Assembly: GCA_040753955.1 (NCBI GenBank)
Contig: JBFMDQ010000002.1
Coordinates: forward strand, 6,592 to 70,591
Source: Nitrospirota bacterium
Lineage (GTDB): Bacteria > Nitrospirota > Thermodesulfovibrionia > Thermodesulfovibrionales > SM23-35
Length of the DNA: 64,000 nt
Direction of reading: 5' to 3'
Shown piece after piece: positions 3,429 to 63,354 of the stretch. Numbering within the stretch: position 1 is the stretch's first letter; each line of letters opens with the position of its first letter. A model generated the notes under the pieces. That model made no database searches. It was given only the letters and a program-made list of their open reading frames with translations, and was not told the DNA's origin. The position numbers and the translations under genes are program-made.

Positions 3429-5180
3429 TTAAAGTTCAAGACTTTTATCTCTTATTTTATCTTTTGTTATCCCTATAAATTTTTCTATTGTGAAGGGCCC
3501 GATGTTTTCGCCACTGCGCTTCCTGACGGTTACCCTCTGTTCAGAAACTTCCCTATCGCCTATTATAACCAGATATGGCACCTTCCTCAAGGTGGCGTTT
3601 CTAATCTTATAGCCGATCTTTTCATTTTCAATATTTAATTCAGTCCTTATACCCTCTGATTTTAATCTTCTCGAAAGGGCCGCTGCATAATCTGAATGCC
3701 TTTCGGAGATTGTAAGGATCTCAACCTGCACAGGTGCAAGCCACAGAGGAAAGGCTCCTGCATAGTGCTCTATGAGTATCCCAAAGAACCTTTCTAAAGA
3801 ACCCATTAAGGCCCTGTGTATCATTATCGACCTGTGATCCTTACCATCACTCCCCCTGTAGGTCAAATCAAATCTCTCGGGAATATTGAAATCAACCTGA
3901 ATGGTGCTACACTGCCATGGCCTATTAAGTGAGTCTTTGACCTTTATATCTATCTTAGGGCCATAGAAGACACCCTCCCCTATATCTACCTCATAAGAAA
4001 GCCCTTTTATCTCGAGTGCCCTTTTAAGGGCAGCCGTGGACCTTTCCCAGTTTTCAAGGCTCCCAACGTATTTTTCGGGTCTTGTAGAAAGGCAGATTTC
4101 ATAATTCTCAAAACCAAAGATTCTCAGTATGTAAAGGGTAAACTCAAGCACACCCAGTATCTCATCCTCTGTCTGGTCCTCCCTGCAGAATATATGCGCA
4201 TCATCCTGCGTAAAACCCCTGACACGCAGAAGGCCATGAAGCACGCCCGAACGTTCATATCTGTAAACAGTTCCCAACTCGGCATACCTGATCGGCAAGT
4301 CTCTGTAACTTCTCAATGAAGTTTTATAGACATGGATATGAAAGGGACAATTCATGGGCTTAATTTCGTAGTCCATCCCCTCAACTTCCATAGGGGAATA
4401 CATGTACTCACTGTAAAAGTCAAGGTGGCCACTTTTCTGCCATAACTGGAGCTTTGCTATATGGGGCGTATAAAGGATTTTATAACCTGCCCTGTAATGT
4501 TCATCTGACCAGAAATCTTCTATAGTCCTCCTTATCACCGCGCCGTTTGGGTGCCAGAGGATAAGGCCGGGCCCTATCTCTTCGTTGATGCTGAAAAGAT
4601 CAAGTTCCCTTCCGAGCCTCCTGTGGTCACTCTTCTTAACCTTTTCTAAGAAATGAAGATATTCCTCCAAATCCTTCTCATCTGTAAAGGATGTCCCATA
4701 AATCCTCTGAAGCATCTTGTTTTTCTCACTTCCACGCCAATAAGCACCCGCAATACTAAGCAATTTAAAGGCTGTGACCCGGCCCGTTGATTCTATATGC
4801 GGTCCTTTACAGAGGTCTATAAATCCTCCTTCCTCATAGAGGGTTACCTCATGCTCCTCCATCTCTTCGAGAAGCTCAACCTTATAATCCTCGCCCATTT
4901 TTTTAAACAGCTCTATCGCCTCTTGCCTTGAAATGATTTTGCGCACAAAGGGATTGTCCTGTTTTGTTATCTCCGACATCTTTTTTTCTATCAAGGCGAG
5001 GTCTTCTGGTGTAAAGGATCTGTCTATATCAAAATCATAATAGAAACCCTCATCCGTAGCAGGACCTATTGCGAGTTTTGCATCAGGAAAGAGCTCTTTC
5101 ACAGCGTGAGCCATTATGTGGGATGTGCTGTGTCTGTAAATCTCCCTCTCTTCCTTGAAATTAAAATTAATAACCCTTAT
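3429..5180 (-). CDS. thrS: threonine--tRNA ligase lacking the N-terminal TGS domain; start codon uncertain
   Basis: Editing-domain motif RHSTSHIMAHAV, class II motifs (YRYERSGVLHGLLRVRGFTQDDAHIF, GSLERFFGILIEHYAG) and an anticodon-binding C-terminus. The first ATG (5114) lies inside the HxxxH motif. The frame is open only up to the TGA at 5183-5181. Confidence 0.9.
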   Translation of the reverse strand: MRVINFNFKEEREIYRHSTSHIMAHAVKELFPDAKLAIGPATDEGFYYDFDIDRSFTPEDLALIEKKMSEITKQDNPFVRKIISRQEAIELFKKMGEDYKVELLEEMEEHEVTLYEEGGFIDLCKGPHIESTGRVTAFKLLSIAGAYWRGSEKNKMLQRIYGTSFTDEKDLEEYLHFLEKVKKSDHRRLGRELDLFSINEEIGPGLILWHPNGAVIRRTIEDFWSDEHYRAGYKILYTPHIAKLQLWQKSGHLDFYSEYMYSPMEVEGMDYEIKPMNCPFHIHVYKTSLRSYRDLPIRYAELGTVYRYERSGVLHGLLRVRGFTQDDAHIFCREDQTEDEILGVLEFTLYILRIFGFENYEICLSTRPEKYVGSLENWERSTAALKRALEIKGLSYEVDIGEGVFYGPKIDIKVKDSLNRPWQCSTIQVDFNIPERFDLTYRGSDGKDHRSIMIHRALMGSLERFFGILIEHYAGAFPLWLAPVQVEILTISERHSDYAAALSRRLKSEGIRTELNIENEKIGYKIRNATLRKVPYLVIIGDREVSEQRVTVRKRSGENIGPFTIEKFIGITKDKIRDKSLEL

Positions 5181-5361: not shown

Positions 5362-5883
5362 ATGGCCTTGCTCGAGATAAAAAAATATCCAGAAAAGATT
5401 TTAAAAGAAAAGGCTGCCTATGTAGAAATTATGGACGGTGACCTTCAGGGTCTTATTGACGATATGGTTGAGACGATGTATGCTGCAAGAGGTGTAGGGC
5501 TCGCAGCAAATCAGGTGGGCGTCTTGAAGAGATTATGTGTGATAGATACAAGTACAAGGGAAGAAGAAAAAAGACTTCCCATAGTCCTTATAAACCCCGT
5601 CATTATTGGAAAAGAAGATACCGTAGAGGCTGAAGAGGGATGTCTGAGCATCCCTGGATATATCCCGATCGTGAAAAGGTCAGCAAAGGTCTATGTAAAG
5701 GGTCTCAATAGAGAAGGCAAGCCAATAGAGATAGAAGCTACAGGCCTTCTCGCCAGAGTCTTACAACACGAGATAGACCACCTCGACGGACTTCTCATTA
5801 TTGACAGGATAAGCCCTATCAAAAGAGAGTTTTTTAAAAAGCGATACAAAAAATCCCTGAAGGCAGCAGTGAGTGGCAAATGA
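5362..5883 (+). CDS. def: peptide deformylase
   Basis: All three deformylase motifs are present: GVGLAANQVG, EGCLSIPG and QHEIDHLDG. Confidence 0.95.
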   Translation: MALLEIKKYPEKILKEKAAYVEIMDGDLQGLIDDMVETMYAARGVGLAANQVGVLKRLCVIDTSTREEEKRLPIVLINPVIIGKEDTVEAEEGCLSIPGYIPIVKRSAKVYVKGLNREGKPIEIEATGLLARVLQHEIDHLDGLLIIDRISPIKREFFKKRYKKSLKAAVSGK

Positions 5884-5892
5884 CAAATCTGG

Positions 5893-6030
5893 GGTTATAG
5901 GACTGTTCTTGAGCGGTTTCTTTTGCCGATATTCAGATAGAATATCTAAAAATCAAGGGGCAAAGGCCTCGGAGTCCCGCACCATATCATGGTACAGGAC
6001 GAGAATGAGCGAGAGAGCAGTCCTATAACC
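5893..6030 (+). repeat. modular two-hairpin repeat element, copy A (diverged termini)
   Basis: Termini GGTTATAGGACTG ... CAGTCCTATAACC are inverted. The internal layout GAGCGG - TTTTGCC/GGCAAAG hairpin - CCTCGGAG - GTCC..GGAC hairpin - CGAGAATGAGCG is shared with copies at 29888 and 31596. Confidence 0.75.
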
Positions 6031-6057
6031 TTTTTTAAAAAATACTTGTAACATAAA

Positions 6058-6984
6058 ATGCGTATAGTATTCTTTGGCACCCCTGAATTCGCTATCCCTT
6101 CAGTTAAGGCGCTGTTGCAGTCAGAAGAAGAACTCGCTGCAGTGGTGACACAGACTGATAAAAGAACGGGAAGAGGTCGCATAGCCTCCCCTCCTCCTGT
6201 CAAGGAATTCGCTATGCAGCGGGGGATCAAGATTTTACAGCCGACAAGTATGAAAGACCCTGCCTTTCTCAATGAGCTTTCAGTTATGGAACCTGAAATC
6301 ATCGTTGTTGTTGCATATGGGAAGATATTGCCTACCCAGATTCTCAACCTTCCCCCTCACGGCTGTATAAACGTACATGCATCCCTCCTTCCAAAATACA
6401 GGGGGGCTGCCCCAATTCAGTGGGCGATAATTAATGGTGAAAAGAAGACAGGGATAACCACAATGCTCATGGATGAAGGACTTGACACAGGTAATATCCT
6501 CCTACAGGAAGAAACAGAGATATCTAACGAAGATAATGCAGAGACCCTCGGAAAAAGGCTATCCGAGATAGGCGCATCTTTATTGATTAAAACAATAAAA
6601 GACATAAAGGATGGTTCTATCAAACCCATCCCACAGGTGGGGACCCCAAGTTATGCCCCTCCCTTTAAAAAAGGAGATGGAAGGATTGATTGGTCAAAAA
6701 GTGCAACAGAAATATTTAACTTTGTCAGAGGTATGTATCCATGGCCCTGTGCCTATTGTTATTTAAATAAAGGGAGGATTAAAATTACTAAGGTAAAGGT
6801 TCTCGAAGGTTTAGGCATTCCCCGCAGGGTAGAGAAGGTGAGCAAAGGAGAACTTGTAGTTGGTGCAGGTAATGGATTAGTCTCAATAATCGAACTTCAG
6901 CCTGAGGGTAAAAGGTCGATGTCTGCCGCAGCCTTCTTACAGGGGAGGAGATTAGAAAAGGGGATCTTTTTTGATGAGCCGTAG
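6058..6984 (+). CDS. fmt: methionyl-tRNA formyltransferase
   Basis: MRIVFFGTPEFA N-terminus and HASLLPKYRGAAPIQWAIING motif. It follows def. Confidence 0.95.
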   Translation: MRIVFFGTPEFAIPSVKALLQSEEELAAVVTQTDKRTGRGRIASPPPVKEFAMQRGIKILQPTSMKDPAFLNELSVMEPEIIVVVAYGKILPTQILNLPPHGCINVHASLLPKYRGAAPIQWAIINGEKKTGITTMLMDEGLDTGNILLQEETEISNEDNAETLGKRLSEIGASLLIKTIKDIKDGSIKPIPQVGTPSYAPPFKKGDGRIDWSKSATEIFNFVRGMYPWPCAYCYLNKGRIKITKVKVLEGLGIPRRVEKVSKGELVVGAGNGLVSIIELQPEGKRSMSAAAFLQGRRLEKGIFFDEP

Positions 6985-27159: not shown

Positions 27160-27305
27160 TCTATCCATTGCCCTTCCAAGTGCCTACGAGGTTAGCTGTC
27201 GGGCTCGGGCTTGGAAGTGCCCTATTCCCGGTTATCCGGGAAACACGCCCCAATATTGGTTCCCCCGTATCCATCTCTAAATGGATTTCGGCTGCTATCC
27301 AGTCA
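27160..27305 (-). ncRNA. c-di-AMP riboswitch (ydaO/kimA class) in the kup leader
   Basis: Minus strand contains ACGGGGGAACCA ... GGGGCG ... CCCGAGCCCGACAGCUAACCUCGUAGGC. This closely matches the conserved ACGGGGGACCCA and CCCGAAUCCGUCAGCUAACCUCGUAAGCG blocks of the B. subtilis ydaO element as I recall them. It lies upstream of a K+ transporter gene, the usual context. Confidence 0.8.
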
Positions 27306-28336: not shown

Positions 28337-29193
28337 AAAATGTAATCTAGTAATGTAAAAACGAAGACTGTTATGCTTATATATCCGTTCATATTAAAAA
28401 ATGCTATATCGAGCCTGCTCAGGTCGTCTTCCTTGAGGAGGGAATGCTCATAGATAAAGAGCCCCGCAACAACCATCATCCCGAGCCAGTAAAAAATGCC
28501 CATCCTGAATAAAATACCTATAAATACGAGCAAAAGGAATGTTATTAGATGGAATATCCTTGCCAAAAACAAGGCCTTTTTTATTCCAAACCTCTGGGGA
28601 ATAGAATAAATGCCATGGGATTTATCAAACTCGATGTCCTGAAGGGCATAGAGTGTATCAAAACCTGCAAGCCAGAACACAACAGCAATCCCCATTGGTA
28701 TTATCTCTAAATCAAATGTACCCTTTACTGCTATCCATGCCCCGAGAGGTGCGACAGATAGTGCTATCCCCAAAACAAAATGGGTAGCCCATGTAAACCT
28801 TTTCGTATAAGAGTAAATAAAAAGTACGGCAATGGCAATCGGAGAAAGTTTCAGGCATAAAGGATTCAACATATAGGCTGCTAAGATAAAGATTACAAAG
28901 GATGCTACCGTAAATAAAACTGCCTCAGACAATTTAATAATCCCGGTTGGCAGTTCTCTGTTCCTGGTTCTTGGGTTTGCCTGATCAATCTTCCTGTCAA
29001 TTATTCTGTTAAGCCCCATGGCGCCTGATCTTGCTCCTATCATGGCAATGGTTATCCACACTATCTTTCTCATGGAAGGGATTCCGCCTGCGGCAATGAT
29101 TGCTCCGGTGAATGCAAAGGGAAGAGCGAAGATAGAATGAGGAAATTTTATCATCCTCAGATAAAGAACTATCTTTTGTGCTATGGAGTTCAC
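28321..29193 (-). CDS. UbiA-family aromatic prenyltransferase
   Basis: NRIIDRKIDQANPRTRNRELPTG and a second Asp-rich motif YALQDIEFD; about 8-9 TM segments. Confidence 0.85.
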   Translation of the reverse strand: MNSIAQKIVLYLRMIKFPHSIFALPFAFTGAIIAAGGIPSMRKIVWITIAMIGARSGAMGLNRIIDRKIDQANPRTRNRELPTGIIKLSEAVLFTVASFVIFILAAYMLNPLCLKLSPIAIAVLFIYSYTKRFTWATHFVLGIALSVAPLGAWIAVKGTFDLEIIPMGIAVVFWLAGFDTLYALQDIEFDKSHGIYSIPQRFGIKKALFLARIFHLITFLLLVFIGILFRMGIFYWLGMMVVAGLFIYEHSLLKEDDLSRLDIAFFNMNGYISITVFVFTLLDYIFWHGS

Positions 29194-29861
29194 AGGGGTA
29201 TGAGTTCACTAAAATCAAGGATAGTCGCAAATTCTGAAGAGAGCAATGGCTTGACCGTTGAATTTGACCTTGCTTTGTAAATCAGATACCTTATACCGAA
29301 TTTTTTTGCTGTTTTTAATACCTCAAGGGTGTCATCCACGAGCAGTGTTTTTCCCTTACCAAAACTGAGCCTCTGCTCAGCCCTGCGCCAGAATTCAATC
29401 TTCTCCTTTGGGAATCCGATCTCAAAAGATGTTATCGCACCTGTCAGATACTTACCGAGGTCAGTCTTTTTTAGCTTCATGTCAAGCACCTTGTAGTGAG
29501 CGTTTGTAACGATAAAGGTCTTAATTCTCCGAGCCTTAAGCATTTTAAGAAAATCCTCAACATGAGGATGAACCTCTATGAGGTGCCTTATCTGTTCTTT
29601 TAATGCTAAGATGTCGAGGTCAAGCTCCTTTGACCAGAAATCAATATCTGTCCAGTTGAGGGTCCCTTCATGTGCCTTGTATCTCTTGAATAGTTCTTCC
29701 CTTGCCTTTCCGAATGTAATTTTATGCTTCTCAGCATATCTTTCAGGCACTAAATGTTCCCAGAAATAATCATCAAAATATCTGTCCAGAAGAGTCCCAT
29801 CCATGTCGAGGAGGACATATTTAATCTCTTCGAAAGGAATTAAAGACATAAGAAAACTCAT
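29190..29861 (-). CDS. HAD-superfamily hydrolase
   Basis: DxDxT motif (LLDMDGTLLD), TNA (motif II) and VDD (motif IV). Confidence 0.8.
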   Translation of the reverse strand: MSFLMSLIPFEEIKYVLLDMDGTLLDRYFDDYFWEHLVPERYAEKHKITFGKAREELFKRYKAHEGTLNWTDIDFWSKELDLDILALKEQIRHLIEVHPHVEDFLKMLKARRIKTFIVTNAHYKVLDMKLKKTDLGKYLTGAITSFEIGFPKEKIEFWRRAEQRLSFGKGKTLLVDDTLEVLKTAKKFGIRYLIYKARSNSTVKPLLSSEFATILDFSELIPL

Positions 29862-29887: not shown

Positions 29888-30019
29888 TGCAGGATATAGT
29901 ATTTGAGCGGTTTCTTTTGCCGATAGTCCGATAAAAAATATTTTAAAAATCTTAAATAATAAAGAGGCAAAAGCCTCGGAGGGCGATAGCCCGAGAATGA
30001 GCGAAAATACTATATCCTG
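29888..30019 (+). repeat. modular two-hairpin repeat element, copy B
   Basis: Termini GCAGGATATAGTATTT ... AAATACTATATCCTGC. Internal layout GAGCGG - TTTTGCC..GGCAAAA hairpin - CCTCGGAG - GGGC-GATA-GCCC hairpin - CGAGAATGAGCGAAAATAC. Confidence 0.8.
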
Positions 30020-30075
30020 CATAATCATATTAATTAGTGATTAATCCCCATCACGATAAAAAAGAAGACTTCCAC

Positions 30076-30663
30076 TCATAATTTCCCCTTTGTCGTCGGA
30101 ATACCCTTTATCCTCGGATCAATAGATACGGCATTTCTCAGTGCCCTTCCCAAGGCCTTGAATATCGCCTCAATTATGTGATGTGTGTTTCTTCCATACT
30201 GGGATTCAACATGAAGGGTTATGCCACTATTGCTAACAAATGCTTGAAGAAAGTCCTCAATAAGGTCGGGGTCAAAATTTTTTATCTTACTTTTCTTCGG
30301 GAATTCAACCTTATAGACAAGATAGGGCCTTCCACTGATATCAAGACTCACCGACGCAAGGGCCTCATCCATCGGAACTGTTGCCTGCCCAAAGCGTGAT
30401 ATCCCTCTCATATCTCCAAGGGCCTGTTTAACAGCCTTTCCGAGGACAATACCAATATCCTCTACCGTGTGATGAAAATCTATATGGATGTCTCCTTTTG
30501 CCTTCATCTTCATATCAAAAATACCGTGTTTACACATTAAGGACAGCATATGGTCAAGAAAGGGTATAGATGTATCAATAGAGTATTGCCCCTTCCCATC
30601 AAGATTGATAGTAAGCTTGATATCCGTCTCCTTCGTCTTCCTTTCAACTTTAGCCGTTCTCAT
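30076..30663 (-). CDS. hisB: imidazoleglycerol-phosphate dehydratase
   Basis: [11 protein letters not shown] and [12 protein letters not shown] motifs; 195 aa. Confidence 0.95.
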
Positions 30664-30804
30664 TTTGCCTCTCCATTGATAGAATTATAACAGATTAGAG
30701 TCCTACAGAGGAGACTGTATGCAAATCTTCTGAAGCGTTGAGACATTTATCCTTTCCTCCTCCAATCTCTCATCTATAATAGGTAGTGGCGAAAAAATCT
30801 TCGA

Positions 30805-31551
30805 TTAATATTTAAAAATGGGAACAGAGCGCTTTTTGATATTGTCCAATACAAAGGGATAGGCTTCGAGATATTCGATTTCAAGCTCCTCGGTAGAGAT
30901 TCCGAGTCCTTTTAATTTTCTGCTCAGCTCTTCGATTCCCTTGGAGCCAAAGATCTCGAGCATAATAGCAGGCCATGCATTCACCCCTGCATCAAGAAGA
31001 TACTTCAAGGCCCTGAGGGGAAATTCAAAATACCCCCCTTCTGCTCCCGAAATTTTCTCAAAGCTCTGTTCATCCCATCCTTTGACGGAAATACGAACAA
31101 AGAGCCTCTTGAAAGGAGAGAGCCTCTGGGCAAGATTCGGACGATATCCCAAGATGAAGCCATTGGTCTCAAGGATGAAATCGAGCGTTGGCTTCTCTGA
31201 AAGAACTCCCTCGATTATCTTGATGATATGTTCAAAAGATTTCTCACCCAGAATGGGTTCTGCGCCGCTCAACCTTACCTTGTTGAAATCTCTCCTCTTA
31301 CAGATATCCAGAAGCCTTCTTACCACTTGCTCAGAGGAACAAAACTCCTCTTTGCACTCCTCGGGTTTCATATTCCTTTCATAATTCCAGCAGTAGGCAC
31401 AGAGAAAGCAACATCCCACCATATCAGCGGTGGCAATGCCTCCATAATATCTTGCTCCCCTGAAACGATAATACTTCCTTTTCTGATCTCTCATAACGAG
31501 GTTTTCGACCTCTTCTGCCCGTTTTACAGGATCGAAAGGAAGTTTAAGCAT
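30805..31551 (-). CDS. small radical SAM protein of unknown function
   Basis: CxxxCxxC cluster in GCCFLCAYCWN, preceded by YYRFRGARYYGGIATAD; 248 aa. I cannot tell the substrate. Confidence 0.7.
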   Translation of the reverse strand: MLKLPFDPVKRAEEVENLVMRDQKRKYYRFRGARYYGGIATADMVGCCFLCAYCWNYERNMKPEECKEEFCSSEQVVRRLLDICKRRDFNKVRLSGAEPILGEKSFEHIIKIIEGVLSEKPTLDFILETNGFILGYRPNLAQRLSPFKRLFVRISVKGWDEQSFEKISGAEGGYFEFPLRALKYLLDAGVNAWPAIMLEIFGSKGIEELSRKLKGLGISTEELEIEYLEAYPFVLDNIKKRSVPIFKY

Positions 31552-31595
31552 TTTATACCTTAGCCCAATTATTCATAAATTAATTAAAAAGTCGG

Positions 31596-31706
31596 TAGGA
31601 CATAGTATTTGAGCGGGTTTAAATTCTTTCAAAGAAAGAATTTACCTCGGAGCCCCGCACTATAACATAGTGCGGGGCGAGAATGAGCGAAAATACTATA
31701 TCCTGC
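31596..31706 (+). repeat. modular two-hairpin repeat element, copy C
   Basis: AGGACATAGTATTT-GAGCGG - TAAATTCTTTC-aaa-GAAAGAATTTA hairpin - CCTCGGAG - CCCCGCACTAT-aac-ATAGTGCGGGG hairpin - CGAGAATGAGCGAAAATACTATATCCTGC. Confidence 0.8.
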
Positions 31707-40220: not shown

Positions 40221-40341
40221 TATAACCTTGTTAAGCTGATACTCCACAATCCCTGATGCACCTGCCATCTTGAGCTTCGGTATGATGTCACGCACAACCC
40301 TCTCATCAATCATTACCTCAAGGGCATACCATCCCTTATCA
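40221..40341 (-). pseudogene. relic duplicate of the hisG 3' end
   Basis: 121 bp that align with 40877-40997 (the last ~40 codons of hisG) with about 7 mismatches by eye. Confidence 0.8.
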
Positions 40342-40876: not shown

Positions 40877-41746
40877 TATAACCTTGTTAAGCTGATACTC
40901 CACAATCCCTGATGCACCTGCCATCTTGAGTTTCGGAATAATGTCTCGCACAATCTTCTCATCAATCATTACCTCAAGGGCATACCATCCCTTATCAGAA
41001 AGGGATGATATTGTAGGCGAGTGCATGGCAGAAAGAAGGCTCATTACCCTTTTAAGAGAGCCTTCAGGAACATTCATCTTGAGCCCAACCTTCTCCTCTG
41101 CTGCGAGAGCCCCCCTGAGGAGCATCACAATATTCTCCATCTTCCGTCTCTTCCACCTGTCACGCCATGACTTCTTGTTCGCAATAAACCTCGTGCTCGA
41201 CTCAAGGATGGTCTCAATGACCCTCAGATTATTCGCCTTTAAGGATGCTCCTGTCTCTGTAAGCTCAACTATCGCATCTGCAAGGTGCGGTGGTTTTACC
41301 TCTGTTGCACCCCATGAAAAATCCACTTCAGCTTTTATACCCCTGGATTTGAGATACTTCTTTGTAAATCCTACAAGCTCAGTCGCAATGCGCTTTCCTT
41401 CCAGGTCCTTTAAAATCCTTATCTTAGAATCATTCGGAACTGCGATTACCCACTTTACAGGCCTGAGACCTTCCTTTGCATAGATAAGCTCAGCGACCTC
41501 ATGGACATCTGCATTCTGCTCCATTATCCAATCTTTCCCTGTAAGACCACAGTCGAGTATTCCATTCTCCACATACCTCGCCATCTCCTGTGCCCTGATT
41601 AACATGGCCCCAATCTCAGGGTCATCAAGGGAAGGATAATAAGAACGGTCCGATAAAGTTATGTGATATCCTGCCTTTCTAAAGAGCTTTAATGTTGATT
41701 CTTGGAGACTTCCCTTCGGAAGACCAAGCTTTAATATTTTATTCAT
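40871..41746 (-). CDS. hisG: ATP phosphoribosyltransferase (long form)
   Basis: [15 protein letters not shown] start and a C-terminal regulatory domain; 291 aa from the ATG at 41746. The ORF extends to 41764. Confidence 0.9.
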
Positions 41747-46051: not shown

Positions 46052-46983
<932 letters not shown>

Positions 46984-51043: not shown

Positions 51044-51118
51044 TGGTAGGCGCGAGGGGGATTGAACCCCTGACTTCTTCCGCGTCAAGGAAGCGCTCTC
51101 CCACTGAGCTACGCGCCT
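51044..51118 (-). tRNA. tRNA-Val (anticodon GAC), CCA encoded
   Basis: Minus strand: AGGCGCG-TA-GCTC-AGTGGGA-GAGC-G-CTTCC-TTGACGC-GGAAG-AAGTC-AGGGG-TTCAATC-CCCCT-CGCGCCT-A-CCA. Confidence 0.9.
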
Positions 51119-55275: not shown

Positions 55276-55350
55276 TGGCTGGGGCGGGAGGATTCGAACC
55301 TCCAGATGGGAGATCCAAAGTCTCCTGACTTGCCATTTGTCTACGCCCCA
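55276..55350 (-). tRNA. tRNA-Gln (anticodon TTG), CCA encoded
   Basis: Minus strand: TGGGGCG ... GGAGA-CTTTGGA-TCTCC ... GGAGG-TTCGAAT-CCTCC-CGCCCCA-G-CCA. Confidence 0.9.
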
Positions 55351-55458
55351 ACAATAAAAGTTTAAAGTTGAAAGTTTAAAGTAAAAAGTTAAGAATGAAA
55401 AACATACTTCTAAAAAAATTGTTATTTCACTTTTAACTTTTAACTTCTCACTTCTTAC
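55351..55458. repeat. degenerate (A/G)AAAGTN heptamer tracts forming an imperfect inverted pair
   Basis: AAAAGTT TAAAGTT GAAAGTT TAAAGTA AAAAGTT ... then TTTCACTTTTAACTTTTAACTTCTCACTT. The same word family occurs at 2613-2654 and 2848-2875. Confidence 0.55.
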
Positions 55459-63265: not shown

Positions 63266-63283
63266 AGTATTCTCTCTGTTTCT

Positions 63284-63342
63284 GTCATTTCGGCTTGTCC
63301 GAAATCCTTCTTCAAGAAAGATTCCCGACAAGCGGGAATGAC
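63284..63342. repeat. double-hairpin palindromic element in the pyrK-pyrD spacer
   Basis: GTCATTTCGG-CTTGT-CCGAAAT ... ATTCCCG-ACAAG-CGGGAATGAC. It forms two 7-bp hairpins with complementary outer ends. Confidence 0.65.
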
Positions 63343-63354
63343 GTAAGTGGCTCC

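Follow-up and report, generated by a model that had tools for sequence, protein, structure and literature searches.

A family of three-stem intergenic elements with a nearly invariant junction, present in three copies in a Nitrospirota contig

Relation to described repeats and folding elements

The pneumococcal BOX, enterobacterial ERIC/IRU and Neisseria Correia/NEMIS elements are modular, small intergenic repeats with long terminal complementarity, which fold when transcribed, are tolerated between genes and can affect mRNA processing; as a rule, REP, BOX, ERIC and Correia repeats occur within a single genus or family, and what they conserve is sequence. Reading of a 64-kb stretch of a Nitrospirota contig (JBFMDQ010000002.1, positions 6,592 to 70,591; the whole stretch is called the window below) identified three copies, A, B and C, of a repeat of another kind, all on the same strand and ~110-140 bases each. 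The strand that carries the motif GAGCGG is predicted to fold into a three-armed structure, in which a stem, P1, joins both ends and two variable hairpins, P2 and P3, branch off. This three-stem element is best explained as a small non-autonomous intergenic element, comparable to REPINs or to MITEs (miniature inverted-repeat transposable elements), that would be recognised in trans through its folded junction, a reading to which we assign a probability of roughly 0.55. That the family is defined by structure and is of a mobile type is probable; that it moves as single-stranded DNA (ssDNA) through the action of an enzyme provided in trans is a tentative proposal, at somewhat less than even odds.

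As ssDNA, REPINs form a long hairpin with compensatory changes, and their presumed mobiliser, acting in trans, is a hairpin-recognising RAYT (TnpA-REP) Y1 transposase present as a single-copy gene (PMC3116915). Like REPs and REPINs, the three-stem element is short, extragenic, high-copy and non-autonomous, and folds as a single strand with compensatory changes. The architecture is different: in a REPIN, two REP palindromes lie in inverted orientation, the ends being conserved and the spacer between them variable, whereas the three-stem element has variable ends (95 distinct P1 arms), an invariant asymmetric centre and GAGCG as a direct repeat. REPIN families are also lineage-specific, while the three-stem core is common to several phyla.

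A first-pass annotation of the window had suggested a REP/RAYT-like system as one possibility. A phmmer search, using unverified IS200 TnpA and E. coli RAYT seed sequences, was performed against the 4,238 open reading frames (ORFs) of the window and of the family loci (L001-L122, of which L121 and L122 are Logan contigs from SRR29635779). It yielded a single match, at L098 3073-3567 (Pfam Y1_Tnp, 20.6 bits, below the cut-off of 23). This gene, the only RAYT-like one near a copy, is bracketed by its own GTAG-type REP, in the form of GTAGCC-GCAGGCTTTAGCCTGCG hairpins (GTAGCC-GCAGGC...GCCTGCG), and not by the three-stem element; the stretch L098 3040-3600 represents a REP-RAYT system of its own within that Nitrospirota genome. 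Identity with REPINs is ruled out by the inverted conservation pattern and by the lack, among these ORFs, of a RAYT gene flanked by the three-stem element, and the specific link to RAYT is not supported.

TwoAYGGAY RNAs (RF01731) are multi-copy in Pseudomonas and have been proposed to bind Csr/Rsm (bioRxiv 10.64898/2026.09.22.753630). The three-stem element resembles them in having two hairpins on a common basal stem and several copies in some genomes, and GGA loops, proposed as Csr/Rsm sites, also occur in its GC-rich members. The Thermodesulfovibrionia-type copies of the window are without GGA loops, however, and the invariant part is the junction, not the loops; RF01731 gave no match even at permissive thresholds.

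The likeness to BOX, ERIC and Correia lies in the modular, small, intergenic build with long terminal complementarity. Those repeats, by contrast, are each restricted to one genus or family and keep their sequence over the whole length, and to our knowledge none of them combines hypervariable, covarying arms with a three-way-junction core that is invariant across phyla.

In integron attC sites and in the ends of IS200/IS605 elements (IS608), one strand folds, structure is conserved over sequence, bulged or extrahelical bases are recognised, and the functional strand is oriented relative to genes or replication. The three-stem element shares the folding of one strand and the conservation of structure rather than sequence. 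Direct reading of the element ends revealed no attC R''/R' boxes (RYYYAAC ... GTTRRRY), and the copies are dispersed, without a cassette array. The ends of IS200/IS605 have no long closing stem and flank tnpA/tnpB; no such gene was found in or beside three-stem elements. In the msr-msd region of retrons, the a1/a2 end stem closes a multi-hairpin RNA and has a conserved G-containing motif at its inner end. A long stem formed by both ends closes the multi-hairpin three-stem structure as well, although a retron is single-copy beside a reverse transcriptase, whereas the three-stem copies are dispersed and multi-copy. An attC site is ruled out by the absent boxes and array, and a retron by multi-copy dispersal without a recurrent neighbour gene.

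The family is not in Rfam; it is a small structured bacterial repeat whose unusual feature is its cross-phylum junction. At the gathering thresholds of Rfam 15, only a c-di-AMP riboswitch and three tRNAs were found in the window. Copies B and C and locus L077, searched at E <= 10, gave chance-level matches only, the best relevant one being a weak local match to CsrB, RF00018 (11.5 bits, E = 0.15, against a gathering threshold of 71), and eight GC-rich loci searched at E <= 1 gave no match. Rfam includes self-cleaving ribozyme families; comparison by eye with consensus sequences gave no match to hammerhead, twister or other ribozyme cores, nor to attC boxes. No description of the family was found in the literature by core sequence or by topic, the nearest parallels, TwoAYGGAY RNAs and UG27 arrays, both being different.

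Fold, covariation and pairing strand

Each copy consists of a P1 arm, (T)GAGCGG-NTT, hairpin P2, CCTCGGAG, hairpin P3, CGAGAATGAGCG-RRR and, at the end, the second P1 arm, complementary to the first. The whole window was scanned, with filters off, with a covariance model derived from 16 relatives, and its matches were A, B and C only (next-best E = 0.19), in agreement with the three same-orientation copies of common layout that had been described at first. Compared with dinucleotide shuffles, the folds of the copies reached z = -6.6 to -9.8 (copy A, -63.7 kcal/mol, z = -7.0), and single-sequence folds agreed with the alignment fold on a three-way junction. Across the family the element measures about 80-170 nt and the P1 closing stem about 18-23 bp.

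The junction, ~26 nt in length and nearly invariant, is made up of GAGCGG, CCUCGGAG and CGAGAAUGAGCG; its predicted features are a GC/GC mini-helix flanked by tandem G.A pairs and a pair of 3-nt bulges, NUU and GGA. In the predicted fold, the GAGCG repeats, although direct, form antiparallel pairs with one another, through a central G-C and C-G flanked by G.A and A.G, so that P1 continues via the tandem G.A/A.G pairs into the mini-helix. This pairing accounts for the presence of GAGCG as a direct repeat inside otherwise inverted arms, a feature that had been singled out as unusual. P2 may be closed by GG...CC across the NUU bulge and P3 by CUC...GAG across the GGA bulge, while AAUGA is predicted to join P3 back to P1. 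As the junction pairs never vary, they are predicted pairs and not proven ones.

A small ORF starting at a conserved AUG was considered and rejected: it has 15, 15 and 7 codons in the three copies, with unrelated tails. The antisense strand of the long-P2 copies (29964-29977, -, and 5954-5971, -) contains a 5-bp GC hairpin, GAGGC/GCCUC, followed by a U-rich run (GAGGCUUUUGCCUC-UUUAUUAUUU in B). This terminator-like hairpin borrows part of the core; on the sense strand, its segment is in competition with the folding of P2.

The pattern CCTCGGAG-N6-36-CGAGAATGAGCG was used to scan for further members in one genome per species. At least 120 loci were obtained, mostly from Thermodesulfovibrionia/Nitrospirota metagenome-assembled genomes (MAGs) among the matches listed; the element is present as well on long contigs assigned to Desulfobacterota, Planctomycetota, Gemmatimonadota and Latescibacterota. 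By covariance model and pattern scan, more than 130 further copies were found in other genomes; within the first 100 of the loci the model located 113 copies, at most three of them in any 8 kb.

Among the 113 model-aligned copies, pairing was kept at 94.7% of the modelled positions. The covariation score was 0.539, compared with 0.166 +/- 0.007 for shuffled alignments and at most 0.084 for slid partners, and double-sided changes occurred at 15 of the 22 modelled pairs (498 such cells versus 137 shuffled). An anchor-based test of P2 and full-length P3 counted 96 distinct P3 arms, 113 distinct P2 arms and the 95 of P1; a closing run of at least 4 bp was present in 104/120 P3 and 112/120 P2 hairpins, against 20% and 35%, respectively, in chimeric controls. 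Nearly all P2 and P3 are helix-closed from the first through the last base. The covariation expected at the outset was therefore very strong in P1, P3 and P2. The 26-nt junction and the three-helix fold are kept from Thermodesulfovibrionia to Planctomycetota and Gemmatimonadota, with nearly every helix position replaced with compensation.

A metagenome pattern anchored on the 5' half was also used. About 100 of the 120 loci listed were chance matches and about 20 real members were added. The exact 3' core was found in 15/19 of the members collected through the 5' half alone, the others being one position off, which indicates that the invariance of this core is not merely an effect of how the copies were found.

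The strand on which the pairing is constrained was examined by forbidding G-U pairs, which makes the fold strand-symmetric, and by counting isolated mismatches between Watson-Crick pairs. G.T outnumbered A.C overall (87 vs 19) and in P1 alone (75 vs 12). No gene context lacked the excess, which stood at 45 vs 12 in the copies that are antisense to the genes on both sides. The asymmetry identifies the GAGCGG strand as the one selected to pair, as RNA or as ssDNA, and its independence of the direction of neighbouring genes places the constraint in the element and not in the host mRNA. It is also evidence against P1 being a mere pair of duplex protein-binding sites. The fold is thus under a strong strand-specific pairing constraint, and the initial proposal of a structured RNA or a protein-recognised DNA hairpin, rather than random decay, is borne out by this excess, by the covariation and by the further copies.

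The hairpin tips differ by lineage, which leaves the junction and the three helices as the universal part; the tips look like exchangeable modules. In GC-rich lineages CAGGGAUG, ACGGAU or similar loops, which resemble CsrA/Rsm binding hairpins, were found at the tips of 17/29 P3 and 13/29 P2. The window-type loops are minimal (3-4 nt), with no enrichment of GNRA (5/32) or UNCG (0/32), as is typical of palindromic DNA elements, and the loops of the Thermodesulfovibrionia copies showed no conserved motif. Another small invasive palindrome, a C6/G6 mini-element (CCCCCC..TTG.....GGGGGG..GGGGGG), lies nested in the P2 loop of L008, L015, L036 and L052 and was also observed twice in L098 (3828-3870 and 4344-4385), with both occurrences falling within one long ORF (3554-4660).

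An outer inverted motif, TTAGCCCAnATTATTCATAAA ... TTTATGAATnAnnTGGGCTAA, occurs on one or both sides of 23/116 elements (about 20%; 9 in the reversed-orientation control). It stands upstream of copy C, where it reads TTAGCCCAATTATTCATAAAT, and at L005, L009, L025, L027, L040, L044, L094, L101 and L102; the motif and its inverted partner take the form TTTATGAAT..TGGGCTAA. No solo copies were seen. The motif may belong to a longer subfamily as its outer module, or it may be a favoured target. In a Desulfobacterium MAG (L026 2700-3260 and L030 6430-7000), the element belongs to a repeated unit of ~560 nt, with 94% identity on one side, in which it is followed by a second, different long-stem structure; each of the two is preceded by the same ~25-nt motif, CACAACGAAGCATGAAACT.

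Genomic behaviour and possible mode of spread

The copies fill short intergenic gaps, at a median distance of ~30-110 nt from the flanking ORFs. Between co-directional genes, 50 copies are antisense and 19 sense (~72%, p = 2e-4). This bias resides in the AT-rich Thermodesulfovibrionia-type copies (45 vs 14) and is independent of the P2 type (18 vs 5 for short P2, 21 vs 4 for long P2). The gene on the 3' side of the element is directed towards it in 71/102 cases, which places the antisense strand directly downstream of a stop codon.

Orthologous sites were found to vary. One site is filled in L008 and L101 and empty in L064; another contains different P2 modules in L079 and in L117/L120, while in L042 only an inverted 29-nt 5' remnant is left. 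The element of L004 is flipped relative to that of L082 and L043, with identical flanks. The main P2 and P3 module classes occur in all combinations, truncated and nested copies exist, and in some copies mini-palindromes are nested at hairpin tips or within the core. Subfamilies of a single genome have identical long P1 arms, which indicates that P1 is part of the copied unit. The elements are therefore dispersed, are present or absent at orthologous sites, flip, decay and exchange P2 and P3 modules.

The gap of the window at 63266-63354 (~89 nt) is orthologous to the occupied site of L082, L043 and L004. It shows a faint resemblance to the element, namely an AATCCTTCTTCAAGAAAGATT hairpin and GCGGGAATGACG, and may be a decayed fourth copy, although the similarity is too weak to claim.

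In the proposed mechanism, an enzyme encoded elsewhere would copy or move the element, acting on a single-stranded intermediate whose folded junction it recognises, with P1 keeping both ends within one complex. The mixing of modules would result from recombination at the three conserved junction segments. The small number of copies sense to operons could reflect selection against the active strand or fold in operon mRNAs or, alternatively, better survival when the active strand is not on the lagging-strand template. An ssDNA intermediate, with recognition of the HUH/Y1 or attC type, is favoured, an RNA intermediate or function being nearly as likely. We lean towards ssDNA because every bacterial precedent for structure-guided movement known to us is ssDNA-based, because the hairpins are palindrome-like with minimal loops and no promoter was found in scans around the copies, and because the pairing constraint is independent of host transcription.

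Several observations weigh against this reading. No mobilising enzyme was found among the ORFs near the copies, and no longer parent was recognised, as the 26 orphan 3' halves had no distant matching 5' half among the family loci. No direct target-site duplication was evident in the flanks; the orthologous filled and empty sites are just 70-80% identical and do not define the insertion boundaries. Exact-protein look-ups of hisB, fmt and HAD retrieved no closely related strain with an empty site, but only short one-sample contigs ending at repeats, or nothing. The orientation test rests on crude longest-ORF gene calls, and neighbouring copies within 8 kb have the same orientation in only 8/16 pairs, so that any replication-strand bias must be weak. 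Some phylum assignments are binning errors, e.g. L028 and L083, which match a Thermodesulfovibrionales MAG of the same site. Finally, a cross-phylum conserved junction with tandem G.A pairs and bulges is equally typical of functional RNA, and the data do not separate RNA from ssDNA.

The rival that survives best is a structured RNA with a function of its own, be it as a scaffold or decoy that binds protein, as a processing signal or as a ribozyme yet to be discovered; its junction would be the active part, and its copies would spread by duplication or hitch-hiking. As an account of the whole family we consider it unlikely, although an RNA role as such (decoy or scaffold, processing signal, ribozyme) is nearly as likely as the ssDNA one. 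An invariant cross-phylum junction with covarying helices is the classical signature of noncoding RNA, and the tolerance of G.U on one strand only, the tandem G.A motif and the 3-nt bulges would be expected of it; P1, of about two helical turns, has the size of an RNase III substrate, and both the CsrA/Rsm-like loops of the GC-rich lineages, with the weak CsrB match, and the TwoAYGGAY-like pair of hairpins on a basal stem point in the same direction. The folding strand, however, is antisense to its co-directional neighbours in 50/69 cases and the element fills the whole intergenic gap; promoter and terminator scans around the copies stayed at background level and, like reading of the flanks, revealed nothing conserved. 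The Thermodesulfovibrionia loops have neither a conserved motif nor tetraloop enrichment, copies are truncated, nested and flipped with variable site occupancy, and no Rfam family matches.

A bolder possibility, which we regard as doubtful, is that the junction is the active centre or docking site of an undescribed bacterial mechanism, either a self-processing RNA or a class of structure-guided, RNA- or ssDNA-borne mobile elements that is spread over at least five phyla and has exchangeable hairpin cargo. The cargo modules, if this were true, would in some lineages include loops that resemble CsrA sites.

A classical MITE of double-stranded DNA, in which a P1-binding DDE transposase would do the cutting and pasting and the internal hairpins would be incidental, is improbable. 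Its size would suit this reading, as would inverted termini of 16-23 bp, the multi-copy spread between genes and the single-genome subfamilies with identical long P1 arms, but the P1 termini vary most and the centre least, the opposite of what a MITE shows. The G.T/A.C asymmetry of P1 (75 vs 12) is not expected of duplex protein-binding sites either, the flanks show no direct target duplication, and no parent or longer element with the same ends was found among the family loci searched.

Least probable of all is an invertible or host-domesticated cis element, acting as an antisense-strand terminator or mRNA-end stabiliser or as a DNA switch flipped via the P1 arms: the flips at orthologous sites, the GC hairpin and U-rich run on the antisense strand of long-P2 copies and the position of this strand just downstream of a stop codon are in its favour, but the pairing constraint lies on the sense strand even in antisense copies, the same orientation bias is seen in short-P2 copies without the terminator-like hairpin, this hairpin has just 5 bp, and no invertase gene linked to the copies was found among the clustered flanking ORFs.

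Clustering of 1,128 flanking ORFs revealed no recurrent neighbouring protein, the largest cluster (a 679-aa protein) being present at 9/120 loci. The exact core pattern had no match in 2.9 million viral contigs (IMG/VR), and BLAST of copy C gave no match in the PLSDB plasmids or the INPHARED phages. The family gives a strong lead towards a partner enzyme, or an RNA activity, that is as yet undescribed, and provides a clean natural experiment on how a selfish or regulatory element is recognised through its structure.

A covariance model of the family would improve the annotation of many uncultivated genomes. L121 and L122, the only public contigs found to encode the exact hisB and HAD proteins of the window, end at copies B and C, which indicates that the repeats break short-read assemblies; they also seed mis-binning, as in the 'Elusimicrobiales' and 'Nitrososphaerales' bins of one site. 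The taxon assignments of L028, L083, L073 and L119 are clear binning errors or chance matches. In L028 (Elusimicrobiales bin) and L083 (Nitrososphaerales bin), the elements and their flanks are near-identical to those of the Thermodesulfovibrionales MAG of L027 and L102; all come from the same Kamchatka samples, and the short contigs look mis-binned.

The three copies and other features of the window

The positions of the copies and their parts are listed in Table 1. An independent repeat finder resolved the copies as a mosaic of modules: P2 is common to A and B, P3 to A and C, and the P1 arms to B and C. The inverted termini described as shared by all three therefore hold for B and C; copy A is without the GCAGGATATAGTATTT termini, and its P1, unrelated in sequence to that of the others, is a different, self-complementary pair, GGTTATAGGACTGTTCT / AGAGCAGTCCTATAACC. 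As this outer stem differs and yet pairs, it covaries too, and all three helices vary with pairing kept. The hairpins had been called perfectly paired; pairing is indeed kept despite the change in sequence, but P3 of A has two C.A mismatches on the + strand. P1 of C has one C.A and one G.U.

Table 1. Coordinates of the three-stem copies and their parts in the window
Feature	Position	Strand	Remark
Copy A, whole element	5891-6032	+	covariance model 49.2 bits, E = 6e-14
A: P1 5' arm	5893-5910	+	pairs with 6013-6030, 18 bp including 2 G.U
A: 5' core GAGCGG	5911-5916	+	
A: P2	5920-5966	+	long 'GCCGATA...GGCAAA' module, common to B; repeat-finder family D11
A: central core CCTCGGAG	5967-5974	+	
A: P3	5974-6000	+	'CCCGCAC...' module, common to C; repeat-finder family D5
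A: 3' core CGAGAATGAGCG	6000-6011	+	
A: P1 3' arm	6013-6030	+	
Copy B, whole element	29889-30020	+	covariance model 54.9 bits, E = 7e-16
B: P1	29889-29904 paired with 30005-30020	+	
B: GAGCGG	29905-29910	+	
B: P2	29914-29973	+	
B: CCTCGGAG	29974-29981	+	
B: P3	29981-29992	+	
B: CGAGAATGAGCG	29992-30003	+	
Outer motif TTAGCCCAATTATTCATAAAT, upstream of C	31560-31582	+	
Copy C, whole element	31595-31706	+	covariance model 90.7 bits, E = 6e-28
C: P1	31595-31610 paired with 31691-31706	+	
C: GAGCGG	31611-31616	+	
C: P2	31620-31644	+	
C: CCTCGGAG	31645-31652	+	
C: P3	31652-31678	+	
C: 3' core CGAGAATGAGCG	31678-31689	+	

Copy A lies between a peptide-deformylase-like ORF (5362-5883, +) and an fmt-like ORF (6058-6984, +), both labelled from motifs recognised in the translation without a database search, and is sense to both; a T run follows it. 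Copy B is antisense to both of its neighbours, the gene of a HAD-type hydrolase (29190-29861, -) and hisB/IGPD (30076-30663, -). Copy C adjoins the start-codon side of a radical SAM gene (30805-31551, -), to which it is antisense. The span 29888-31706, originally marked as the repeat family, contains B and C but also the ordinary minus-strand genes hisB and radical SAM, which are outside the element. The flanking of these two genes by B and C, also pointed out at that stage, has no evident meaning and looks incidental, as copies occupy many short intergenic gaps.

Other features were observed in the window. The c-di-AMP riboswitch, of the ydaO/yuaA type, is located at 27166-27303 (-) and is full length (87.2 bits), and the tRNA genes identified with Rfam are at 46052-46127 (+), 51047-51118 (-) and 55279-55350 (-). 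A 121-nt direct repeat, with 95% identity between units that lie 656 nt apart (40221-40341 and 40877-40997), has no relation to the three-stem element. The repeat finder also detected small tandem clusters of purine-rich AAGTnAAAAGT-type repeats at 2591-2868 and 55358-55396, the latter adjoining a tRNA gene.

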